Origin: a virus
Direction: 5' to 3' (one strand)
IMG/VR virus record: IMGVR_UViG_3300044837_000112
Span: 14,972 to 78,971 of that record
Length of the DNA: 64,000 bases
In this document: piece by piece, positions 1,793-61,327 of the stretch
Position numbering within the stretch: the first letter of the stretch is position 1
Layout of the letters: the number at the start of each line of letters is the position of its first letter
Program-made: the position numbers and the translations under genes
The notes under the pieces: model-generated
What the model was told of the DNA's origin: nothing
Databases searched by the model: none
The model's input: only the letters and a program-made list of their open reading frames with translations

Positions 1793-2018
1793 ACAGAAGG
1801 CGTTCGACATTACTGAACACCTGCCAGCCGACATGTCGAGTGGCGAGAAGATAAACCAGACACGCGACCCGTTCACGGGAGACGTATATGGCCCTGGCTT
1901 GAAGATAAGCGCAGACGGTGAAATCACCAGGATTGAACTAACTGAAGAGCTTCCCGACTGAGCTTTCCCTAGCCCGCCGGTAGGGGAGAGTAATGCGAAG
2001 AACCTGGAAGATGAAAAT

Positions 2019-2303
2019 ATGGGTAATGATCCTGCACCACATGCGGGACCACCCTGCTGCTATCAGGAGTACGTCGACATCCTGGCCTCCAAGAAAGACT
2101 GGAGCGCAGTCAGACGTAAAGGTTACACCGACGCCATCAATAATACTGTTGCCACTATTCCAGATGGCAGCAGCCAAGACGAAATAGCTGATTACTACCG
2201 GGGGTACAACGATGGAGCCAAATCGAACGAAGTCTGGATTGATTGTCCCCGCCGGTGTTCCATCCAGCGCATCCACGCCCGCCGTTGGCTTGCCAACCAC
2301 TGA
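2019..2303 (+). CDS. Hypothetical protein
   Basis: ORF preceded by CCTGGAAGATGA motif; overlaps next ORF so extent uncertain. Confidence 0.4.
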   Translation: MGNDPAPHAGPPCCYQEYVDILASKKDWSAVRRKGYTDAINNTVATIPDGSSQDEIADYYRGYNDGAKSNEVWIDCPRRCSIQRIHARRWLANH

Positions 2304-8048: not shown

Positions 8049-8600
8049 ATGCTGATAAAAGACGAAAACTTTATCAAGTGGTACGCGTTAAACCTCAACC
8101 CCGAGCCGTGGCGCATTGGCCCGATTGGCTGGAAGGTCGTCAACGGGCGAAAGATTCCCTTCGTTGCGCCCGATCCTGACCTCAAGAACTACCAAGAAGC
8201 AGTCCGCGAACAGTTGGGCTTCCAGCTGGAACATGGCGGAATTCTGCCGTACGGTGGCTTGGTAAGTCTGCACTTCTTCTTCTGGAGACAGCTCGACTCC
8301 TACGAGACCGACGAGAAGAAATCGCAACGGCATATCGCCGACGCAACGAACATGCAGAAGGCACTCGAGGATGCCCTGCAGGGCACGCTGATCACGAACG
8401 ACCGGAACGTCCGGCGCATCAGATCTGACCTCATCGAACAGACACCGACGACGGTTCCGGCTATCATCATCAAGTTCTCAAGCTATCAGGAACCGTCAAT
8501 GGGCGAGCTGTGGCGGGAGGCTGACTTCCCTGCATATGTAACCAAGGTGCTTGCGGAGTTCGCCGAGACGCCGGGCCTGGCATTCGACAACTCACTGTAG
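8049..8600 (+). CDS. RusA-like Holliday junction resolvase
   Basis: DATNMQKALEDALQG...NDRNV catalytic motif. Confidence 0.8.
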   Translation: MLIKDENFIKWYALNLNPEPWRIGPIGWKVVNGRKIPFVAPDPDLKNYQEAVREQLGFQLEHGGILPYGGLVSLHFFFWRQLDSYETDEKKSQRHIADATNMQKALEDALQGTLITNDRNVRRIRSDLIEQTPTTVPAIIIKFSSYQEPSMGELWREADFPAYVTKVLAEFAETPGLAFDNSL

Positions 8601-8610
8601 GGGAGTAGCA

Positions 8611-9075
8611 ATGCACATTCTGATAATGGACAGCGACGAGCACATCCTCGGCAGCAAGAAGTGCTGTGGTGGTGTCTCTGGCAACTGTTCCGAGGAGGGT
8701 TGCATCGCCTGGGTGCACTACCAAGCGATGTACGGCGGCTACGACGAGGCCTGCGAAGTACACGACATCGCTCGATTCGAAGCTCGACCGGCAAAGCTGC
8801 CAGAAGCTGTTAGCGAAACCTTCAGCTTCGAAGAGTTCCGCGACAAGGGAGTGCTATTCCTGCTCAACACGGCTGTCTTCCATCCTCGCGGTATGGCCGT
8901 CGAGTGGGTCTACGACAAGGATGACCGGACCGTCCTCGTCGGCTGGCGCGTACGCGGCGACGGCACTGAGGTCTGGAGCTTCATGAAGTCCGATGAACTC
9001 GACGACGTCTTCGCGCGGTCGCAGGCGTTCCTGGAATCACTGATCCGCAAGGTGGAGGTCACCAATGGGAACTGA
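8611..9075 (+). CDS. Hypothetical protein
   Basis: GGGAG RBS before ATG 8611; L..LNT.VFHPRG motif. Confidence 0.6.
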   Translation: MHILIMDSDEHILGSKKCCGGVSGNCSEEGCIAWVHYQAMYGGYDEACEVHDIARFEARPAKLPEAVSETFSFEEFRDKGVLFLLNTAVFHPRGMAVEWVYDKDDRTVLVGWRVRGDGTEVWSFMKSDELDDVFARSQAFLESLIRKVEVTNGN

Positions 9076-11008: not shown

Positions 11009-12149
11009 CGCTACTTCGCTGCAAACCTTCGTGGAATGTCCGGCGAAGTTCCAGGCGATGATGATTGACCGCGCGGGCACCTTCAGTGGCGACGCTGCGA
11101 CGCTAGGTAGCTGTCTGCACTCTGTGCTGGAAGAGTTCGTCAATCCAGTCGACATGGCTGTTGGTAACTGGGACTGGGATAAGATGGAGTTCCTGTGGTT
11201 CTCCGCTTGGCTGAAGTTCTTTCCGGGCCAGCCGCCGCGTGGTGATATCTGGGACGACGGCCTAAAGATTCTGCAAGGTTGGTTTAATCGGACTGGCATG
11301 CTACAGGACATCCAAGAGGGCGTCGTCGTCTCTCGAGAGATTAAGCACTTCTTTCCGGTGCCGTATCTGTACGAAGGCGAGAAAGGCGAAGTCAACTTCA
11401 ACTACATCATCGACCGGCTCGATCAGATCGATGACACTACCTGGCGCGTTGTGGACTACAAGTCGCAGCGGATTCCGTGGTCGGCTGAGGAGATGCGGAA
11501 GAAGCTGCAGGTCCTCCTCTACGCGTTAGCCGTCAAGATAGCGCACCCGGAGGCGACGAAGATCTGGGTGCAGTTCGACTTCCTGCGCTCCGGTACCGTC
11601 TCGGTGTTGTTCGAGTACGATGACCTGGTCGACGCCTGGAGACTGGTAAAGACTCTGCTGCAGCAGGTAGTCGACACGGACGTGGACGCTACGCCCGAGC
11701 GGCTGAACGAGAACTGTGGCTACTGCGTGCGCAAGCTGCGCTGTATAACCCTGCTGAAGCACCGGGTCCACGGCATCCTCGGCATGTCGGAGGATGACCT
11801 CGCAGCCGCATACCTGGATCTCAAGGATTCCATCAAGGCCCTCGGTATCCTGAAGGAGGAGATCGAGAATTCCTTCCTAGTAAAGGCGGCGGCGGAGGAT
11901 ATCCTCGACTGGTATACCGAAGAGGGTATGCTGATCAAGGTAACGGCGCCGTCGCGGCGCAGCATTAACCGTGACAGGATGTCCGACATCCTCGGCAAAG
12001 AACTAATGACAAAGTACGGCCGGATCAACGTCGGAGATCTTGATACCCTCCGTGCCGATCCGGCCCTTACCTTTGAACAGAAATCCTTGCTGAACTCTGC
12101 AATCGAGATGAAGCAGGGTGAACTGGGAATCTCAATCAAGAGGAAGTAG
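10989..12149 (+). CDS. Cas4/RecB-like PD-(D/E)XK exonuclease
   Basis: SATSL..F.ECP, IIDRLD, VVDYKS, Q...YA, C.YC....C. Confidence 0.9.
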   Translation: MIPRTISATSLQTFVECPAKFQAMMIDRAGTFSGDAATLGSCLHSVLEEFVNPVDMAVGNWDWDKMEFLWFSAWLKFFPGQPPRGDIWDDGLKILQGWFNRTGMLQDIQEGVVVSREIKHFFPVPYLYEGEKGEVNFNYIIDRLDQIDDTTWRVVDYKSQRIPWSAEEMRKKLQVLLYALAVKIAHPEATKIWVQFDFLRSGTVSVLFEYDDLVDAWRLVKTLLQQVVDTDVDATPERLNENCGYCVRKLRCITLLKHRVHGILGMSEDDLAAAYLDLKDSIKALGILKEEIENSFLVKAAAEDILDWYTEEGMLIKVTAPSRRSINRDRMSDILGKELMTKYGRINVGDLDTLRADPALTFEQKSLLNSAIEMKQGELGISIKRK

Positions 12150-40503: not shown

Positions 40504-41985
40504 CTAAAACACCCTGGTGGCGGGAACCTCTAGCACGACTGATCCCTCAATCTCCTTGCGTGTCGGAGGTGTCGGAGCCGCAGTCGCCGCATGGACCATC
40601 CGCTCGCCTACCGCAAGACCACCCAGGGTGCCACCAGCACCGAGTCCCTTCAGCATCCCCTTGATCATGTCGCCATCGATCTCGTTACGAGGGATGCCAG
40701 CCTCCTCCAGCGCGCGGACTGCTGCGGCAACCAGCTCCTTGGGGTTTTGGCTGCTAACTATGCCTGCCGAGACGCCGACCCCGACGTTGACGTTGACGTT
40801 CGCCGCGCCCGACAGCTTCGGGTCCACCAGCTTGGCGAGTTTGACGCCATCAGCGAACAGTCCACCCATCTGCTTAGTAACCTCAGGATCAAGCTGGTCA
40901 CTCTCGGACTCCTTCTCCATCGCGGTCTCGAGCCGCTCTGCCCGCATCCTGGTCAGCTCGGCGAGTCCCTCGACGATCCGACCCGCGTCGCGGTGCTGGA
41001 AGAACTTGGCAAGATCGGCCATCTCGGACTCCTTTAGGCCGCAGATCTGACCGGCACGAAAGACTCTACAACCAGGAGCGATGCTACACTGGTCACAAAG
41101 TACCTTCTCGGCGGCGGCGGTGGTGTACTGTTTGCGCTGAATGACGATACTCTGGCCCTGATGCGGTAGCCCAGTCGCAGCGATGCGCTCCATAGCTCTG
41201 GTGGCGCCACGACCCGCGTACCTGAAGTTCGAGTTGTAGTGCTGCTGCGCCCACAGGATCGAGCGGATACGCAGCAGATAGCGAGCCTGCTGACCCAGCG
41301 AGCCTCCATCGAGAAAGTCTTTGACGGTGATGCCGAACAGCTCGATCCAGTGACGCCAGTCATTTATATCGCGGTAGAAGTTACTCGAGTCCATATCAAG
41401 CGTCCGGCCCGGCGCCAGCCGAATCTTCCGGTTCTGGTCACCCAGATCCTCTAGGCCGACATCGACGCTGGCCAGATCATACGCGAACATGTACGCGAAG
41501 CTGATGAGGCCATTGACGTGCAGAGTCACTCCTGGATTGTCGAGCTGCAGTTTGCCAACTCTTGCCAGCATGCTAGACGGCATGCCACCGAAGTTATAGA
41601 GCACAACCTTGTGCTCCTGGCCAAATACTGACCGCATCGTCCGGTCTATCGTCTCGTCCGCACATAGCCGGGCGTTATCACCAGCTGGGTTGGCGATCAG
41701 GAACTCCAGATCTTCCCAATCATCTGTTTTGGGAGACCAGGTGGGATACACAGCACTCGGCTCACCGAAGCAATCCTCGGGCCGGTACAACTGCGCGCCT
41801 TGCTTGCCCAAGATCATGATCTGCGGGTGGATCTGTGAGCTGGCGTAAATCTGCCGGATTAGGTTCAAGCCGTTGTGCTTCTGGCGACCCAATTCTGTCT
41901 GTGAAAAGACGATCCGCGAGATACCTTCATCGCGGAATAGGGAGACATTAACGCGAGGGTTCCGAAACCACACCTCAGTCATCAT
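40504..41985 (-). CDS. Pre-terminase protein: degenerate TGT-like barrel, Cys4 cluster, helical C-terminus (possible small terminase)
   Basis: LHVNGL..F...Y..ASVD segment; CDQC.....C........C; position just before terL; GGGAAGG RBS. Confidence 0.5.
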   Translation of the reverse strand: MMTEVWFRNPRVNVSLFRDEGISRIVFSQTELGRQKHNGLNLIRQIYASSQIHPQIMILGKQGAQLYRPEDCFGEPSAVYPTWSPKTDDWEDLEFLIANPAGDNARLCADETIDRTMRSVFGQEHKVVLYNFGGMPSSMLARVGKLQLDNPGVTLHVNGLISFAYMFAYDLASVDVGLEDLGDQNRKIRLAPGRTLDMDSSNFYRDINDWRHWIELFGITVKDFLDGGSLGQQARYLLRIRSILWAQQHYNSNFRYAGRGATRAMERIAATGLPHQGQSIVIQRKQYTTAAAEKVLCDQCSIAPGCRVFRAGQICGLKESEMADLAKFFQHRDAGRIVEGLAELTRMRAERLETAMEKESESDQLDPEVTKQMGGLFADGVKLAKLVDPKLSGAANVNVNVGVGVSAGIVSSQNPKELVAAAVRALEEAGIPRNEIDGDMIKGMLKGLGAGGTLGGLAVGERMVHAATAAPTPPTRKEIEGSVVLEVPATRVF

Positions 41986-42089
41986 GTCCCTTCCCTCGCC
42001 CTCTCGGAGCATTAGTAGATATCTGTACACCATACAACCAGGACGCCCACGCGCGGGAGCAATGTAACGGTAGGGAATGTTGGATACAG

Positions 42090-42126
42090 TTCGGGCCAGC
42101 CCCCCGTGGAAGAAGGCTGGCCCGAA
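42090..42126. terminator. 12-bp-stem hairpin upstream of late operon
   Basis: TTCGGGCCAGCC...GGCTGGCCCGAA; no clear U-tract. Confidence 0.55.
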
Positions 42127-42255
42127 ACTACTCTGTGTTAAGTCCTACCCGTCACTCTCGCCCAACAGCCCGTCACTCTCGCAACAGGGGGCCTCCGGGG
42201 GAGTCTCACAGATACTTGATTGTTTATCCTGGAAGATGATCGCTCAAGTAAGGTC

Positions 42256-42284
42256 ACTATACCATGACCCGTAAACCGTGTCAA
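42256..42284 (-). promoter_or_regulatory. Leftward sigmaA-type promoter
   Basis: TTGACA-17 bp-TATAGT with TGn extended -10 on the - strand. Confidence 0.8.
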
Positions 42285-42339
42285 ATCATCTTAACAATCG
42301 CCGGTAATAAAGGTGAATAATGGACACATGGGACGCCGC

Positions 42340-42369
42340 TAGACCGGCCACCACGTGCCGTGATACGGT
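42340..42369 (+). promoter_or_regulatory. Possible rightward promoter for primase
   Basis: TAGACC-18 bp-TACGGT with TGn extension. Confidence 0.4.
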
Positions 42370-42452
42370 CACGGGACCGCGATAGGCGGAAGTTCCAGCT
42401 AGGTTACCGGCGGAACTAGAGCAAACATCCTGGAAGATGAATCGGAGATGCC

Positions 42453-43358
42453 ATGAGCGTCCAAGAATACACTGACGATATGCTGAAGGATGTTGCCAAA
42501 CTACTGGCGAAGCACTTCATTGCCAGGTCTGACGTGATGGCCCAGCAGCACCCCGACGGAGGCTACTCGCCTACCCGCGGGCCCCGTAACCCTGACGGTA
42601 CACCTGGTGACCTGGCTGGCTTCTCCATGCCGGCCCTGATGAACCACCTCAAGGGTACGGCGACCCTGGGCCACTATCTGCTGAACAAAGATAACCAGTG
42701 CAAGCTGTTCGCCTTTGATATTGATATCGACGGCATCAAGTCGGGTACGCCGAAAGAGGATTGGTGTCTGCTTCCAACCTCGTACATCGACGGCGAGTAT
42801 CGCGAGTACTTCCACATCGATGGGAGGCTCGCCTGGAAGACTGATATGGCGGGATTCCAGCTAGACGGCGGGCCTACCTATACTCGGGATATGCAAATAG
42901 TGAGCCGCGACTTCCTGCGGTACCAGTTGCGCCGAGTGGCCGACGAACTGATGATCGCGATCCGAGAGAACTTGGAAATCCCGACCGTCTTCGCGTACAC
43001 CGGCAACAAGGGTCTGCACGTGTACGGGTTTACTGGCCTGATGGACGCCAAAGATGTGCGTGAAGGGGCCGAAATCTGTGCGGAAGCCGCTAGAATGCGC
43101 CCGCATAAGGGGTCTAACTTCTGGAAACCGACCGATAACTTCGCTGAACCCTGCGCCCTAACGGTTGAGATCTTCCCCAAGCAGACGACCATCGGCGAGG
43201 ACGGCTTCGGGAATCTGCTCCGTCTGCCCCTCGGAAAGAACCTGAAGAACCCGGAACACCCCACTTTCTTCTGTTCTGACGTGCCAGGTGGCGAAAGATC
43301 CTCTATCACCCCGGTCGATACTCTGCAGCTGTTTGAAACAGTCTTCCGAGGTCTGTAA
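42453..43358 (+). CDS. Archaeo-eukaryotic primase (AEP, TOTE-primase-like)
   Basis: FAFDIDID, YTGNKGLHVY, EIFPKQ.....FGNLLRLPLG motifs. Confidence 0.88.
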   Translation: MSVQEYTDDMLKDVAKLLAKHFIARSDVMAQQHPDGGYSPTRGPRNPDGTPGDLAGFSMPALMNHLKGTATLGHYLLNKDNQCKLFAFDIDIDGIKSGTPKEDWCLLPTSYIDGEYREYFHIDGRLAWKTDMAGFQLDGGPTYTRDMQIVSRDFLRYQLRRVADELMIAIRENLEIPTVFAYTGNKGLHVYGFTGLMDAKDVREGAEICAEAARMRPHKGSNFWKPTDNFAEPCALTVEIFPKQTTIGEDGFGNLLRLPLGKNLKNPEHPTFFCSDVPGGERSSITPVDTLQLFETVFRGL

Positions 43359-43478: not shown

Positions 43479-45419
43479 ATGACAGATGTGAGTACGGCGG
43501 GGACTGTAGCGGTAGGTACTACAGTCCCCGCACCGCGATCTGGCAAGTTTGCGGAGGCTCTTGCAGCCCGCCGGGCGGCGAAGGCGGCAGAGTCTGGGGT
43601 AGAGAAGTCGCTACTAGAGGCAGTAGAAGACTTCATCCCGGACATACCACCAGACCCGCTCACGGAGTATCAGTCGAAGGTGAACGCAGCCATCGAGGAG
43701 ATCACCTTCCAGGAGGTCTTCGAGTTGATGGTCTCGATGGGGATCATCTCCAGGTCGGCTAAGCCGATCAGCTCCTGGGTCGGCGACTCCAACAAGTTCT
43801 TCTGTCCGGACCCGTCCCACGACAACTCCGGCGGCACCATGAGTGCCTGGGGTTCCCGCGAGAAGGGGAAGTGGACCTGCTCCAAAGGCTGCGGCGATGG
43901 GGCAGGTGGTGGCGACAAGTTGTCGCTGGCTAAATATCTGTTCGGCGAAGAGTTCCACGACAGATGCAACAAATTAGCTGGCGCCCTGCGTGGTGTTAAG
44001 AAGCCTGAATTTTTGGTTGGTGGCCTCCCGCCGGAGTCACCAGTCGCCCTGGTGACACCTTCGACTTCAGTAGCTTCAGCTGAAGTAGCTGAAGTCGGTC
44101 CAGCCGGACCAGGGGAAACTACAGATCCGTTGCTACTGCGTTTCGATGGGAATGCAGTCCTTGCCTTCTCGTCAGTGAAGGATTCGTTCCTTCACAAATA
44201 CGTTGCCGCAATGGCGCTCAGCTCATCCCCGGAAGAATTTAATCTGCCACTAGCCATGCTCGTGATTGCACTGGTCAGTGGCCGCCGCGTACAGTTGGAC
44301 GACGAGTACCCCGTGATCCCGACGATGGGCATTGTCCTTGTTGGCACCTCGGGTGATGGAAAGACGAACAGCATAAAGCCAGCCAAGAAGCTAATGAGAA
44401 CTGTTGATCCAGCCGGTCCCGAGAGGTTCGGCATCAACATCGACAAGAACGTAATCTCCGGACAGGAACTCGTCCACACCTTCCGGAAGGTTGAAAAGGA
44501 TCTCGAAACCGGCGCCGTAACGGAGTACCCGATCCGGGCGCTACTCGAGTACCCAGAGTTCTCCGGCTTCTTTGGCAGTACGAAGATGACTGGGTCTTCA
44601 CTCAAGACGTTCCTACACGAGATGCTCGATGGGGACGAATACCTCGGCTACGGGAGCCGCTCCGCTGGAGGCAAGGTGATTGCCCGGAACGCTTTCGGAT
44701 GCGTCATCTCGACAGTACAGACGGATATGCTGTCTTCCCTGTTTACGCGGGAAGACGCCGCGTCCGGCTTCATGAACCGCTTCATTATGATCAGCGGAAC
44801 AGAGAAGGAGCAGGTTGGAATCAATCGAGCTGTCATCGACAGCGATGGGTATACCGCTGCCCTGCGAGAGGTGAAGTCCTTCTGCCACGGCACGGGGCGA
44901 TCGAAGCCAATCCTCTGGAACCCTGACGCAGAAGCTCTGTATAACAAGATCTATAAAGAATATCTCAAACCGATCAAGGACGCTGACCGGCGTGCGCTAC
45001 TAAAGCGTATCGACCTATACTTCAAAAAGTTCTGTCTCATCTTTGCAATCAACGAGCGTTCTGAGTATGTGCTGCCACACCATGTACAGATGGCCAGACA
45101 GATGACCACGTACATCGTGCCGACAAGTCAGACCATCTCCGAGAACGTCTTCGTCGCGGACGCGAACGACATGGACGAGTGGCTCGTCCGTCGGATCGGG
45201 GCGCTGGAGCTGCTGTCCAGAGAGAAGGAACCGACCAAGGAGCACCACGGCCCAACCGTCGCCGCACTCGGACGCGAGTTTAAGAAGAAGAAATGGACCA
45301 TTGAATCCGTCAACAAGGCACTCAAGGGTCTCGAGATCGCCGGCATCATCAAGGGGATCGACGGCGGCGGCAAGCGTGGCCAGCGAACTAAGTACTACTA
45401 TCTTATCGAGCCAGACTAA
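43479..45419 (+). CDS. Zn-finger + DUF3987-like replicative helicase/ATPase
   Basis: CPDPSHD...C..GC...GGD Zn finger; GTSGDGKT Walker A; SGFMNRF; C-terminal wHTH-like segment. Confidence 0.8.
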   Translation: MTDVSTAGTVAVGTTVPAPRSGKFAEALAARRAAKAAESGVEKSLLEAVEDFIPDIPPDPLTEYQSKVNAAIEEITFQEVFELMVSMGIISRSAKPISSWVGDSNKFFCPDPSHDNSGGTMSAWGSREKGKWTCSKGCGDGAGGGDKLSLAKYLFGEEFHDRCNKLAGALRGVKKPEFLVGGLPPESPVALVTPSTSVASAEVAEVGPAGPGETTDPLLLRFDGNAVLAFSSVKDSFLHKYVAAMALSSSPEEFNLPLAMLVIALVSGRRVQLDDEYPVIPTMGIVLVGTSGDGKTNSIKPAKKLMRTVDPAGPERFGINIDKNVISGQELVHTFRKVEKDLETGAVTEYPIRALLEYPEFSGFFGSTKMTGSSLKTFLHEMLDGDEYLGYGSRSAGGKVIARNAFGCVISTVQTDMLSSLFTREDAASGFMNRFIMISGTEKEQVGINRAVIDSDGYTAALREVKSFCHGTGRSKPILWNPDAEALYNKIYKEYLKPIKDADRRALLKRIDLYFKKFCLIFAINERSEYVLPHHVQMARQMTTYIVPTSQTISENVFVADANDMDEWLVRRIGALELLSREKEPTKEHHGPTVAALGREFKKKKWTIESVNKALKGLEIAGIIKGIDGGGKRGQRTKYYYLIEPD

Positions 45420-45775: not shown

Positions 45776-46330
45776 ATCAACTAGCGGTAATGCGGAGCAA
45801 AATAATGCGGAGCACGAATCTTTTTCGTGCTCCGCATTACTCTCTGTCACGGGCAATAATGCGGAGTAAATCGGCTCCTACTTATTTACTACGAATTACT
45901 TTGGCTAGTTGATCTATAAATCGGTTATTCGGAGCGGCTCCCCAAAACATAAAGGAGCACGTTTGACCTGCGGTTATGCATAGAGGAGTGCGTAAAATGC
46001 GGAGCCGTACCGTCTATACCCGTAGGGCCATACAGGTATCAAGAAACATCAAGTACTAAATTTCTCCCCTACGGTTACCGTGTGTAGTCATCCGAGTCCT
46101 TATACGAAGACTTTGATCACGGTATACGCCTAGCTCCTAATTCCCCTAATTCTCCTCATTGCGTTTTCGCAGGTCAAACGCCATATGATCATGCTCATAC
46201 TACTACTACTACTAACTCCTACTTACTTATATATATATATATTATAGATAATGAACCATCTGAAGACCCTAAGATGGGGGGTGTAGGCGAGGGTCTATAC
46301 AACTGGCTATATCTTTCTAGATGATCATGC
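45773..46330. other. Putative replication origin (iteron-like TAATGCGGAG repeats plus AT-rich tract)
   Basis: TAATGCGGAG at 45788, 45803, 45857, inverted at 45830; 16-bp-stem hairpin 45803-45839; (TAC)n/(TA)n tract ~46198-46252; adjacent to primase/helicase. Confidence 0.55.
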
Positions 46331-46447
46331 TTTCAGAAAAACTTGGTGTGTGTTGCGCGAGGCAAGAGAGGCCCGATTTCGTGCCCGGTTTGTCATTTTT
46401 TGTCCGGTATGCCCCGATAATTTGTCCGTTTTGCCCCGATTCTAATG

Positions 46448-46649
46448 TGGACAAGTCCACATCGGACTGTCCGTTTTGCACCGATCTGTACCATTGGTCA
46501 GTCCGATATGGCACAGATGCCCGAGTCCACATTGGACAGGTCTACATCGGACTGTCCGTTATACCCCGATCTGTACCATTGGCCAGTCCGATATGCACGA
46601 GATGACCCTGTTCCACATTGGACAGGTCTACATCGGACTGTCCGTTATG
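46448..46649. repeat. Tandem repeat, 85-86 bp unit, ~2.3 copies
   Basis: Units begin TGGACA(A/G)GTC.ACATCGGACTGTCCGTT at 46448, 46533, 46619. Confidence 0.9.
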
Positions 46650-46759
46650 TCGTGATATCATCACCGATAGTGTGCACTATCGGTGATCTAGACCATCAGA
46701 TGGTCCAAAGGTATGACCATTAGCATGACCAGCCATCGTACAGGTGTGCTATGCGAGAC

Positions 46760-46773
46760 GTTTCACGTGAAAC
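46760..46773. promoter_or_regulatory. parS: parS site 1
   Basis: GTTTCACGTGAAAC inside 20-bp perfect palindrome 46757-46776. Confidence 0.85.
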
Positions 46774-47003
46774 GTCAAAGATCATCTTCGTGTGGTCGCG
46801 TAGGGCTAGTTGATCTTGGTCTAGTCTTGGCGCGAGACTAGTTCACATCCACCATACCGTCTGGTGGTAAGACCTTTCCAACGGACCATCTGCATGACTG
46901 TCTAATGGTCCTACCATTAGACCATTAGACAGTCAGACCATTGGCACAGCGGCCAGTCAAACCAGTAGTACGTGACACAAACTAAAAAGAAAGTTAACAG
47001 TCC

Positions 47004-47300
47004 GGTAAACAACCTTTACAATTGCCATCCAAGCAACTGTAAAGAAACCTAACCCAATGGTAAACAACCTTTACAGTTGCCCATACCCAACCATCCTAGG
47101 AAGCTAGGAGGCTAGGATGCCCACCACCAGCACTGTTAAGACTCTTTACAGTAACGCAAACCTTCTTTACAATTGCATCAGCAACTATCATCGCGGCAAA
47201 CATCTAACTGTTAACAAACCTTCTTCAATAGCAAACCTTGTTAACAGTCATCCATGATCACTGTTAACAAACCTTACCGTACAGCCAACCTTCCTAACAG
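47004..47300. repeat. AT-rich degenerate repeats
   Basis: GGTAAACAACCTTTACA(A/G)TTGCC at 47004 and 47059; ACTGTTAACAAACCTT at 47207 and 47260; further partial copies. Confidence 0.8.
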
Positions 47301-47746
47301 TCGTACCACACCCACAACCTAGCCCATCTGTCAACCAGAAACGCCGGGCAATCCACCGAACGGTCTGACATCCAGCCCTAGCGGTTGGGTAGCCGAGCCG
47401 TTCGGTCATTCCGCTAGTTGATCTACGCCCGGCCGTCCGACGTCATCCGCCAATGGCCCATCTAGACCCCCTAGCGTCGCCACCGACGGGCGTTCTAGCG
47501 CCTGGTTATAACCACACCGACCTAGGCGATTTCTCGCGGCACGATCGATCCTAGCGCGTTTCCGCTGGTCAACCGATGTGATCATTTGTCCGTATCGGTC
47601 CGCGTAGCGCCTACGGTGATCCAGTAGGCCACCGAATGTGGCCGAAAAACCCTTGACAATCACCCATCTGGCCGATACCTCATCGCCCGTAGGCGAGCTG
47701 TCCTAGCTTCCTAGGATGCGTCGCATCCCCCAAAGATCTAGGGCAC

Positions 47747-47803
47747 CTGGGCATCCTAGGACACTAGGAAGGTGACCCGGCTGGGCATCCTAGGACACTA
47801 GGA
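47747..47803. repeat. 23-bp direct repeat CTGGGCATCCTAGGACACTAGGA x2
   Basis: Copies at 47747 and 47781. Confidence 0.85.
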
Positions 47804-48234
47804 CGCTGGCCGAAAGGTTGATCCTCCGAACGGTTGGCCAGGGCTGACCAGAAGTCTTTTTTGTCTAGCCGTTCGACAGCCGTTCTAGCGTGCATATGCG
47901 TGTCCTAGGCACTAGGATTGGCGTAGCGCCAAAGACGGAACGAAAAACGGTACGGGGTAGGGGACGGGCCAGGGGCCAGGCGCAACCTAGCGCATGCGGG
48001 CCCCGGGCTAGTTGTTCGTTGACATCTGAATGTGCCTGGTTACTAATGGGCACCACTCTGACCAACCATGGCGCTAGCTAGCGCCCGTTGCGTGATCTCG
48101 TAGACCTATGTGTCCGGGATATCCGACATGCCTCAGCCATGGTTTAGCCCGTAGACGGGCTGGTCACCTGACGATGACTTTGGTTACGTCCTTATGACGG
48201 GCCGTTTTGATCCTCGTACGTTTCATGGTTTCTG

Positions 48235-48248
48235 GTTTCACGTGAAAC
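48235..48248. promoter_or_regulatory. parS: parS site 2
   Basis: GTTTCACGTGAAAC, intergenic. Confidence 0.85.
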
Positions 48249-48275
48249 ATCGAGATCAACTAAAAGGCGGCTGTT

Positions 48276-55419: not shown

Positions 55420-55492
55420 AGCGGGTTGGCGCAGTTGGTAGCGCGCTGGGCTCATATCCCAGAGGTCAGGGGTTCAAGTCCCCTACCCGCAA
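55420..55492 (+). tRNA. tRNA-fMet (CAT)
   Basis: Cloverleaf; 1:72 mismatch; GGG/CCC anticodon stem; loop CTCATAT; T-loop TTCAAGT; no encoded CCA. Confidence 0.88.
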
Positions 55493-55827
55493 CGATCGAT
55501 TACCAGGCCAGTCACTGCCAACGATGCGTGCAACGCGCCATCTTAGGAGCGGTGGGATCACCTGGCCTGGTAGTCGAGCCTAGTTAGTCGCCTACGCACT
55601 CTAGCGTGTGCGTAGACCCAAGATCAGTGCGGCGCGTTACCCGCCTTTCGCTGACGCGCTGATCTTGGGTCTACGGACGTTCTAGGGCCACGAGGCTAGT
55701 AGCGTTCAGGGTGTCCGGCCGTGGTTCCTCGTGGGACCAGGTGGAAGCCGAAAGGCCACGCTGTGGGGAGAAAACCACCACGGCTGGACACCACCCTTCA
55801 ATCCTGGAAGATGAGAAGGCGGGTAAA

Positions 55828-56100
55828 ATGCTTGTCGAAGTAGGAGAAAGGCAAAAGCTTTTCTTAGTCACAGTCAAGTTCGACTCCCGGCCGAAAGTGG
55901 CACCGGGTACGCCGAAGATGACTGGGCCGTGTCCGGCCACGCTCGAGGTCAACTGTACGGACGTAGAGGGCAAGCACCACACGGTGCTGGCCAGCCGTCC
56001 GCTCGGTACCACTATCGAAGAGGTGGCGGCCTCGTTCACGGACTTCCTGCACGTGACGCGCATCGAGGAGGTGCCTGGAGAATGGGAGCGCATGGTGTGA
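55828..56100 (+). CDS. Hypothetical protein
   Basis: AAGGCGG before ATG 55828; GPCP....CTD..G.HH motif. Confidence 0.65.
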   Translation: MLVEVGERQKLFLVTVKFDSRPKVAPGTPKMTGPCPATLEVNCTDVEGKHHTVLASRPLGTTIEEVAASFTDFLHVTRIEEVPGEWERMV

Positions 56101-58967: not shown

Positions 58968-58997
58968 CGCAAGTCATCAAACCCCTGGAAGGTGACA

Positions 58998-60490: not shown

Positions 60491-61192
60491 ATGACTGACA
60501 CACGCATCCCCGAGCCCGCGCTGCCCGCCGCCCGTATCGGTGGCGTGAACAACCTGGAGCCGCTGATCGGCGAGGGGGTCGAGAAGGAGCCGATGCTGCT
60601 GCTCGACACGACTGGCAGCATGAGCTACCCGATCGCCGAGGGCTCGGCCATCACCCGCAAGGATCTGGTCGGCGAAGCACTCGGCGCGCTTGTCGGTGCG
60701 CTCGAGGCGTTCGACAGCCAGGCGCTCGACGAGGCTGCCGCTGGCGAGGACGCTGGCGGTGTTATGACTATCACCTTCGCTGGTGGCTTCGCCACCAATA
60801 TCGGCGACCTCGCGCGTAGGAACTGGCGAGAGAAGTGGGACAAGATTCAGTGGGGCGGCGGCACTGCCATCATGCCCGGCTGGGCCCTGCTCGAGGAGAC
60901 GTATGCGGATGAGTTCGGCGACCGGCCGAACCTCGACCGGCCGAACATTCTCGGCATCGTCGTGACCGACGGCGAGCTGACCGACGCTGCTCAGTTCGAG
61001 GCGACCCTGCGGGCGACCAGCTCGCGTACCTTCGTCGTGATCGCACTGGTCGGCTACGGCACCGAGCACGACGACGCGCTGCGTTCATACCAGAAGATCG
61101 CCGAGACGAACAAGCGCATCCGCGTCGTCTCGTTCGACAGCGAGACGGACCCGCTGCAGATCGCGGCCGACCTGCTCGAGCTGGTCAAGTAA
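60491..61192 (+). CDS. von Willebrand factor A (vWA) domain protein
   Basis: MIDAS-like LLDTTGSM, GGT, IVVTDG. Confidence 0.85.
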   Translation: MTDTRIPEPALPAARIGGVNNLEPLIGEGVEKEPMLLLDTTGSMSYPIAEGSAITRKDLVGEALGALVGALEAFDSQALDEAAAGEDAGGVMTITFAGGFATNIGDLARRNWREKWDKIQWGGGTAIMPGWALLEETYADEFGDRPNLDRPNILGIVVTDGELTDAAQFEATLRATSSRTFVVIALVGYGTEHDDALRSYQKIAETNKRIRVVSFDSETDPLQIAADLLELVK

Positions 61193-61298: not shown

Positions 61299-61327
61299 CG
61301 TAAGTCATCAAACCCCTGGAGGTATCT

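Follow-up and report, generated by a model that had tools for sequence, protein, structure and literature searches.

A 14-nucleotide sequence at early gene starts of a phage genome and its complement at the predicted 5' end of the late-operon transcript

Why should a short sequence that stands before the start codons of early genes occur once more where no gene follows it, just downstream of a predicted promoter for the opposite strand? The question arises in IMG/VR virus record IMGVR_UViG_3300044837_000112, a soil actinophage genome on a single contig of 78,971 bp (57.8% G+C, CheckV completeness 99%), of which bases 14972 to 78971 form the 64,000-nucleotide (nt) window analyzed here. The element is a 14-mer, ATCCTGGAAGATGA, found exactly at 42226, 42427, and 55801, together with a one-mismatch form, AACCTGGAAGATGA, at 2001; all are on the + strand. 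A whole-genome scan confirmed the initial annotation of this DNA on these points, which had listed the three exact copies and a near-copy before ATG 2019. The four sites are as follows.

42226..42239, + strand: copy A, ATCCTGGAAGATGA, an orphan without a + strand gene
42427..42440, + strand: copy B, ATCCTGGAAGATGA, in the 5' untranslated region (UTR) of the AEP primase gene
55801..55814, + strand: copy C, ATCCTGGAAGATGA, ending 13 nt before ATG 55828
2001..2014, + strand: copy D, AACCTGGAAGATGA, one mismatch, ending 4 nt before ATG 2019

Allowing one mismatch, the whole 78,971-bp genome contains these 4 copies and no further matches, against an analytic expectation of 0.025. Allowing two, there are 5 matches against 0.39 expected, and 5 was reached in 0 of 100 dinucleotide shuffles. 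Matches with 2–3 mismatches are inside genes, scattered over both strands, and one-mismatch 12-mers also occur on the - strand inside genes (43702 and 57594) at about chance level. Among 12-mers present at least three times in the genome, the only dispersed repeats are this motif and a parS-like palindrome; the remainder are tandem repeats, tRNA T arms, and three-copy chance matches inside genes. The matches listed for the exact 14-mer in IMG/VR include single chance matches only. The sequences flanking the four copies are unrelated, which shows that the copies are not duplications. No copy lies within the 30-kb leftward structural operon, and the gene-linked copies are all at non-structural genes. 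Primase-based scans of IMG/VR and the JGI metagenomes yielded a single close relative, L001 (IMG/VR contig 3300020034_000166; primase 79% identical), and two of the copies are perfectly kept there within a spacer that is ~50% identical. It is exceedingly improbable that the copies are chance repeats or the functionless residue of a recent duplication. There are four copies only, but about 0.03 are expected, the shuffles never gave the observed count, and both the unrelated flanks and the conservation of two copies speak against it.

The next issue is what the gene-linked copies mark. The features at these sites are listed below.

42453..43358, + strand: AEP-type DNA primase gene, first of the rightward operon (Pfam PF22548, E 4.5e-15)
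55828..56100, + strand: 90-amino-acid ORFan behind copy C, with a positive coding-potential profile in this frame
2019..2303, + strand: 94-amino-acid ORFan behind copy D, with positive coding potential to about 2220
42340..42369, + strand: putative rightward early promoter, TAGACC-18-TACGGT, with hexamers conserved in L001 and a diverged spacer

The gap from the end of the motif to the start codon is 12 nt at ATG 42453, 13 nt at ATG 55828, and 4 nt at ATG 2019. The 30 nt upstream of start codons account for about 1.8% of strand-specific positions, and against this background the location of three of three gene-linked copies near starts is not a chance result. Copies B and C each precede a separate Shine-Dalgarno sequence (GGAG or GAAGG), with copy B ending 3 nt before the GGAG of primase; copy D itself occupies the ribosome-binding-site position. 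The space before the gene can be large: the intergenic gap that holds copy C exceeds 300 nt, and the UTR that holds copy B is ~75 nt long. A sigma-70-like promoter was not detected within 200 nt upstream of C or D, and copy B is located about 45–60 nt downstream of the putative early promoter. The -10 of that promoter recurs in Gordonia phage Woes, where TTGACA-17-TACGGT occupies the corresponding position ahead of the primase gene. The proximity to starts despite large gaps, together with the lack of a sigma-70-like promoter near C and D, points to translation-initiation regions, rather than promoters, as the sites that the gene-linked copies track. Two other assignments were rejected. As a promoter element (extracytoplasmic function-type or leaderless), the motif would need a -35/-10 partner at fixed spacing; none is shared, and the distance to the ATG varies. 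As a Shine-Dalgarno sequence, it contains GGAAG rather than AGGAG and matches the anti-Shine-Dalgarno poorly (two A-C mismatches), and copies B and C have a Shine-Dalgarno of their own. The 14-nt sequence may instead act at the RNA level, as a start-associated tag that marks a few early non-structural mRNAs (those of the primase operon and the two ORFans), a tentative assignment that we place a little short of probable.

The surroundings of copies C and D have features of their own. A multi-branched, cloverleaf-like RNA structure is strongly predicted at 55709-55797, ending 4–5 nt before copy C, in which a 13–15-bp closing stem (GGUGUCCGGCCGUGG/CCACGGCUGGACACC) surrounds three small hairpins. 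Upstream of it are tRNA-Met (55420-55493) and a long hairpin (55601-55675). Neither ARAGORN nor Rfam calls the cloverleaf-like structure, which could be a processing signal that generates the 5' end of the 55828 mRNA. The 90-residue open reading frame (ORF) at 55828-56100 is followed by a gene from 56097 that overlaps it via GTGA. Pfam and PHROG searches gave no match for this ORF or for the 94-residue ORF at 2019-2303. Within 2019-2556, the coding potential shifts at about 2230-2250 from the frame of ORF 2019-2303 to that of ORF 2212-2556; a pair of overlapping genes, a TTG start further on at 2290, or a frameshift could each account for this. A small ORF of ~42 codons at 1833-1961 has positive coding potential and is uncalled in the gene map, and its presence reduces the gap containing copy D to only 57 nt.

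Copy A is the orphan. The sole + strand ORF behind it has 18 codons, begins 24 nt away, and encodes a peptide that is not conserved in L001. The earlier description of this copy as lacking a + strand gene and lying just downstream of a leftward promoter, TTGACA-17-TATAGT, proved accurate, and the promoter match is extended by a TG. The leftward features are listed below.

42256..42284, - strand: leftward promoter (P_L) of the packaging/structural operon, TTGACA-17-TGnTATAGT, 11/12 matches plus TG
42215..42249, - strand: conserved first ~26–35 nt of the predicted leftward transcript, carrying UCAUCUUCCAGGAU, from the L001 comparison
41986..42249, - strand: predicted ~264-nt 5' UTR of the small-terminase gene (late leader), from the inferred start codon and the -10
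42090..42127, no strand assigned: GC-rich hairpin, 12-bp stem UUCGGGCCAGCC/GGCUGGCCCGAA
40504..41985, - strand: small-terminase-like gene, first of the leftward operon (PHROG phrog_6902 terminase small subunit, E 3e-41)

Copy A is 17 nt from the -10 of P_L, which corresponds to about +11 to +24 of a leftward transcript whose start (~42249) is predicted from the position of the -10. A transcript from P_L would carry the exact 14-nt complement, UCAUCUUCCAGGAU, near its 5' end. L001 keeps P_L in the same place as TTGACA-18-TGnTATGGT with a diverged spacer, copy A is 14/14 identical (2742-2755), and its register to P_L is kept within one base. Copy B is also 14/14 identical (2976-2989) and ends 11 nt before the L001 primase ATG. 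The +1 to +9 segment of the leftward transcript is 10/10 identical in the two phages. Outside the named elements, 82 of 164 ungapped columns of the divergent-region alignment match, and 124 further columns are gaps. No further motif copies were found in the readable part of L001, which extends ~9.5 kb beyond the primase start; the equivalents of C and D are outside that stretch, and no relatives of the regions around C and D were found.

More distant phages do not have this arrangement. The region has no megablast or blastn match among 50,697 phage records. In 45 distant IMG/VR relatives, repeats shared by the primase start region and the 655 nt before it reached no more than 6–10 nt. This empirical null shows that the 14-nt match is not a family-wide accident, and the absence of the arrangement from all 45 makes it lineage-specific. 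Woes and Trogglehumper share the divergent primase/terminase layout, and their divergent regions of about 140–150 nt are without the arrangement.

What kind of RNA would carry the complement? The initial annotation proposed a discrete small RNA of ~160 nt ending at a 12-bp hairpin. The hairpin is present at 42090-42127. Its RNA stem, GGGCCAGCC/GGCUGGCCC, is extended by UUC/GAA, and a conserved flank, TGGATACAGTTC, adjoins it; the stems are identical in L001 and the 12-nt flank is also conserved, whereas the loops differ. However, the hairpin has no U tract on either strand, and a terminator scan was negative in both phages. No Rfam family, RF01695 included, matches 41900-42500 at E values up to 1, and across the whole window just three tRNA matches reach the gathering score. 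The first leftward gene had been placed at 42033, but its start appears to be ATG 41985, as judged by MMTEVW here versus a GTG followed by TEVW in L001. This start gives a leader of about 264 nt and puts the hairpin in the middle of the 5' UTR. These data do not support the discrete small RNA, and the complement is better assigned to the predicted, perhaps processed leader of the late operon. A direct repeat, CCCGTCACTCTCGC, does occur at 42148 and 42169 as described, but it falls within a ~83-nt stretch missing from L001 and is therefore dispensable. A small ORF behind copy A or in the leader was rejected: the peptides show no conservation, and no frame survives the 83-nt indel. The idea that the hairpin loop contains a second seed was also rejected, because the complement of the loop does not recur near gene starts in either phage. 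The sequence TGGATACAGTTCGGGCC at 42081-42103, at the hairpin, is perfectly conserved in L001; it may be a rightward promoter facing P_L ~150 nt away (~70 nt in L001) or part of the hairpin element.

The same features raise the alternative that P_L is controlled like the late operon of phage lambda, with the initial transcribed region as a pause or loading site for a Q-type factor, the hairpin as a regulated terminator, and the other motif copies unrelated or serving another purpose. A strong, constitutive-looking promoter is followed by a conserved +1 to +26 segment, a conserved hairpin 40–160 nt downstream, and then the late genes; moreover, the non-template strand contains CATCTT, which matches a -10-like pause element at A2 and T6. 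This explanation is nevertheless very unlikely: the hairpin lacks a U tract, no Q-like protein was found, and three more exact or near-exact copies at early-gene starts are left without a role.

Tags at three early starts and a conserved antisense copy at the start of the late transcript find their simplest single explanation in the leader itself. We favor, tentatively and at somewhat less than an even chance, the reading that the late-operon leader carries the tag complement, pairs with early ribosome-binding regions, and represses the early genes. The more specific proposal, that the 5' end of the late-operon mRNA is a trans-acting riboregulator whose first ~25 nt pair with the tag and shut off the primase and two other early mRNAs, is a degree more doubtful. 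The tag would be positioned directly 5' of, or within, the ribosome-binding regions of the early mRNAs, and the exact complement would stand at the beginning of the late-operon mRNA or of a 5' fragment derived from it. If P_L fires from the predicted start, late transcripts would accumulate and their 5' segment could meet and pair with the tagged early mRNAs over -27 to -5 from the start codons. Pairing would keep the 30S subunit from binding, provide RNase with a double-stranded substrate, or both, and the early genes would be turned down as the packaging genes come up. An early/late antisense switch had been suggested for this locus before. The motif, its strand bias, its location at early ribosome-binding sites, and the geometry of the complement survive from that suggestion, but the discrete small RNA and the variant targets do not.

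One point for the leader is that copy A precedes no conserved + strand ORF and has the same register downstream of P_L in both phages. Predicted folds are compatible with pairing. The complement at the 5' end of the leader has a mean unpaired probability of 0.46–0.49, and the tags in mRNAs B, C, and D are 54–67% unpaired. A weak 5' stem-loop that can display the complement is predicted in both phages; its outer pairs are CUUG/CAAG here and CUUG/CAGG in L001, the change from U-A to U-G being one-sided. Sites C (-29 kcal/mol) and B (-28 kcal/mol) give predicted duplexes that are among the strongest in the genome outside the self match. In a separate observation on the - strand RNA, the leader segment UCAUC..UUCC (42226-42240) can pair with the terminase start region GGAAGGGACAUGAUGA (41975-42000), a possible cis loop that would close the 264-nt leader. 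Pairing of the complement with the terminase ribosome-binding region appears in the fold of this phage, is absent from the L001 fold, and was set aside.

Several findings weigh against the leader as a repressor. The phage is known from metagenome assemblies only, and the leftward RNA is a prediction from sequence. There are three targets and one close relative, and the motif is identical in both phages, which leaves no covariation. The 5' stem-loop has a consensus energy of just -4.55 kcal/mol, and the leader folds no better than shuffled sequences (z -1.4 and -1.8 in the two phages). Duplex energies separate the targets poorly from the GC-rich background: site D ranks below the 30 best, and a score of -31 goes to a - strand site, at 43702, that is not transcribed. 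The hairpin without a U tract does not predict a discrete small RNA, and the arrangement is missing from all more distant relatives. The conservation of copy A could instead reflect a DNA site or a requirement of the promoter for its initial transcribed region.

The DNA-site idea takes a definite form as an operator. A phage or host protein would recognize the asymmetric 14-bp duplex, block or pause RNA polymerase at +11 to +24 of P_L, and serve as a roadblock or a local regulator at the remaining three, in the manner of a small-scale stoperator system. The conserved segments are 14 bp long with sharp boundaries and unrelated flanks, a site just past the transcription start is a classic repressor position, and the phage encodes DNA-binding proteins, such as a 62-amino-acid HTH_17/MerR-like protein. 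The Cluster A mycobacteriophages provide a precedent in asymmetric 13–14-bp sites bound by a monomeric repressor (PMC9283540, PMC5559632), and stoperators of these and Gordonia phages are likewise intergenic, with one site at a promoter and others within transcription units (PMC9283540, PMC6550527, PMC5559632). However, there are 4 sites here versus 20–30 for stoperators, and they do not resemble the stoperator consensus, which ends in TGTCAAG. Copies B, C, and D point along + strand transcription, whereas copy A is oriented against the leftward unit, and B, C, and D hug start codons, not promoters. A single protein that blocks the late promoter along with early genes would suit a lysogenic repressor. 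Neither an L5 gp71-like repressor nor a repressor and integrase cassette was found among the 36 phage proteins scanned, which contained one 62-amino-acid HTH_17/MerR-like protein and one short tyrosine recombinase. The distant relatives found are ~73–78-kb Cluster CS Gordonia phages. Cluster CS Gordonia phages are lytic. The phage does not look temperate. We regard an operator, at P_L and at the other three sites alike, as the main and a serious rival, possible but rather less likely than not; binding of the duplex by a protein would make the four sites a new asymmetric operator system, and one that belongs to a seemingly non-temperate phage.

Alternatively, the motif could be a cis-acting RNA tag that is read by a protein or the ribosome, as a translational repressor or activator site, a site-specific RNase target, or a standby or enhancer site, with copy A either transcribed rightward from a possible promoter (TACAGT at 42085) facing P_L or involved in promoter interference. 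The location at start codons resembles the start-associated sequence (SAS) motifs of actinophages (PMC3203893), for which a role of this kind was first put forward, and the targets of T4 RegA/RegB, proteins that act on short degenerate sites (GGAG, A/U-rich) in early mRNAs (PMC3014915). As in the RegA/RegB system, the proposal for this phage has early mRNAs shut off at the sites of translation initiation in the course of infection; it differs in having a long exact tag, for which the sole partner identified, by sequence, is a complementary RNA. The sign of a possible rightward promoter is TACAGTTCGGGCC at 42085, which is similar to the -10 and discriminator (TACGGTCACGGGACC, 42364) of the putative early promoter. 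Intergenic sequence contains no third match to the pattern, and L001 has kept both, but the 42085 candidate has no -35 element and no consistent spacing. Other points against a cis-acting tag are the poor anti-Shine-Dalgarno match, the separate Shine-Dalgarno in B and C, the lack of a candidate RNA-binding protein, and the lack of any reason for the fixed register of copy A with P_L. Overall, this alternative is distinctly unlikely, although a distant relative, Rhodococcus phage Mbo2 (ON191531.1), has its own repeated start region at five early genes. In Mbo2 (record 67970-74612), genes 097, 098, 099, 102, and 103 share a 20-nt start region, AGGGAGAGAACCGAAATGAC, with an extended upstream sequence, CACCCACCGAGGGAGAGAA, common to four of them, an unannotated start-associated repeat in a cultured phage. 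The Mbo2 repeat indicates that private start-region tags recur in this broad group.

The closest known kind of element is the SAS of the Cluster K mycobacteriophages and the SAS-like sequences of Cluster EF Microbacterium phages. SAS are 13-nt asymmetric tags at the starts of non-structural genes, all in one orientation, with an occasional orphan copy (PMC3203893, PMC7302621). The original authors left their function open and noted that the partner could be 'either RNA or protein' (PMC3203893). The motif shares with SAS its length (13–14 nt), asymmetry, restriction to the phage, single orientation, and position just upstream of non-structural gene starts, as well as one extra copy away from gene starts (copy A). 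It differs in having 4 copies compared to 10–19 in SAS phages (11–19 in Cluster K, PMC3203893), and in lacking an AGGAG core, an extended inverted-repeat (ESAS) partner, and any sequence similarity. SAS are 3–7 nt from the start, whereas the gaps here are 4, 12, and 13 nt (11 nt for the L001 primase); two of the three gene-linked copies are 12–13 nt from the ATG, upstream of a separate Shine-Dalgarno, and copy D alone is at the ribosome-binding-site position. Unlike in SAS phages, the orphan has a defined place, antisense within the first 25 nt of the late-operon transcript.

Phage antisense RNAs offer a second comparison. The c4 RNA of P1/P7 and the CI RNA of satellite P4 derive from operon leaders and pair with repeated sites beside a ribosome-binding site. 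They are processed, structured RNAs of 70–80 nt that act in immunity on their own operon. The leader proposed here is like them in being a leader-derived phage RNA with a short complement to repeated targets adjacent to ribosome-binding sites, with control by pairing. It differs in the location of the complement, which is the 5' end of a late mRNA, and in its targets, which are early genes scattered over other transcripts. The c4 antisense RNA family is Rfam RF01695 (PMC2864571), which has no match here, and membership in the c4 family is not claimed. Compared with base-pairing small RNAs in general, the leader has, by sequence, its own promoter (P_L, conserved in L001), but no intrinsic terminator defines a 3' end.

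SAS have been known in actinophages since 2011 without a mechanism. The present locus has three tags, one complement copy, and one strong promoter, a small and fully specified system in which RNA-RNA control of phage timing could be tested cleanly. If the leader does act in trans, it would be a dual-function mRNA that links late transcription to early-gene shut-off, and an addition to the few known phage antisense regulators (P1 c4 and P4 CI). The early-to-late switch would then be enforced directly as late transcription sets in, and SAS would gain a concrete RNA partner. Whether an RNA or a protein reads them, the four sites are landmarks of regulation in a phage lineage about which little is known.

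The remaining observations concern the genome around these sites. The gene map, based on codon usage, places non-structural + strand genes up to window position 12149, then a 30-kb leftward block from 42033 down to 12155 that contains the small-terminase-like gene, more head and tail genes, and two very large proteins; + strand genes start again from 42453. A primase/helicase gene is next after the AEP-type primase, for which Gordonia and Rhodococcus phages have homologues that carry the annotation DNA primase. Among named phages, those of Gordonia (Cluster CS, for example Woes), Rhodococcus, and Tsukamurella are the nearest relatives, with a primase identity of just 36–39%.

The targets that had been added to the four motif copies, variants at 58984, 60471, and 61315, do exist, but they are ordinary Shine-Dalgarno-like sequences at chance frequency. 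Two of the three belong to a different repeat, GTCATCAAACCCCTGGA. This repeat, at 58973-58989 and 61304-61320, in each case follows tRNA-like T-arm sequence and stands just before a start codon (58998 and 61328). T arms of the GGTTCGAGTCC type occur at three places, and just 3 tRNAs are called. The vWA label attached to the gene at 60491 was not reproduced by Pfam.

The 62-amino-acid HTH_17/MerR-like protein (excisionase/BldC-like) is encoded before the window at record bases 8512-8700. The tyrosine recombinase, also before the window (record bases 11305-12141), is short (278 amino acids) and Xer-like; a XerC-like recombinase is annotated in Mbo2 too, which makes it a conserved group feature rather than a sign of integration. 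Finally, 2.5 kb of the window (45776-48275) has no called gene. This gene-free region contains promoter-like sites at 46994 (TTAACA-17-TACAAT) and 47145 (TTTACA-17-TACAAT), tandem repeats, and the first two of six GTTTCACGTGAAAC palindromes.

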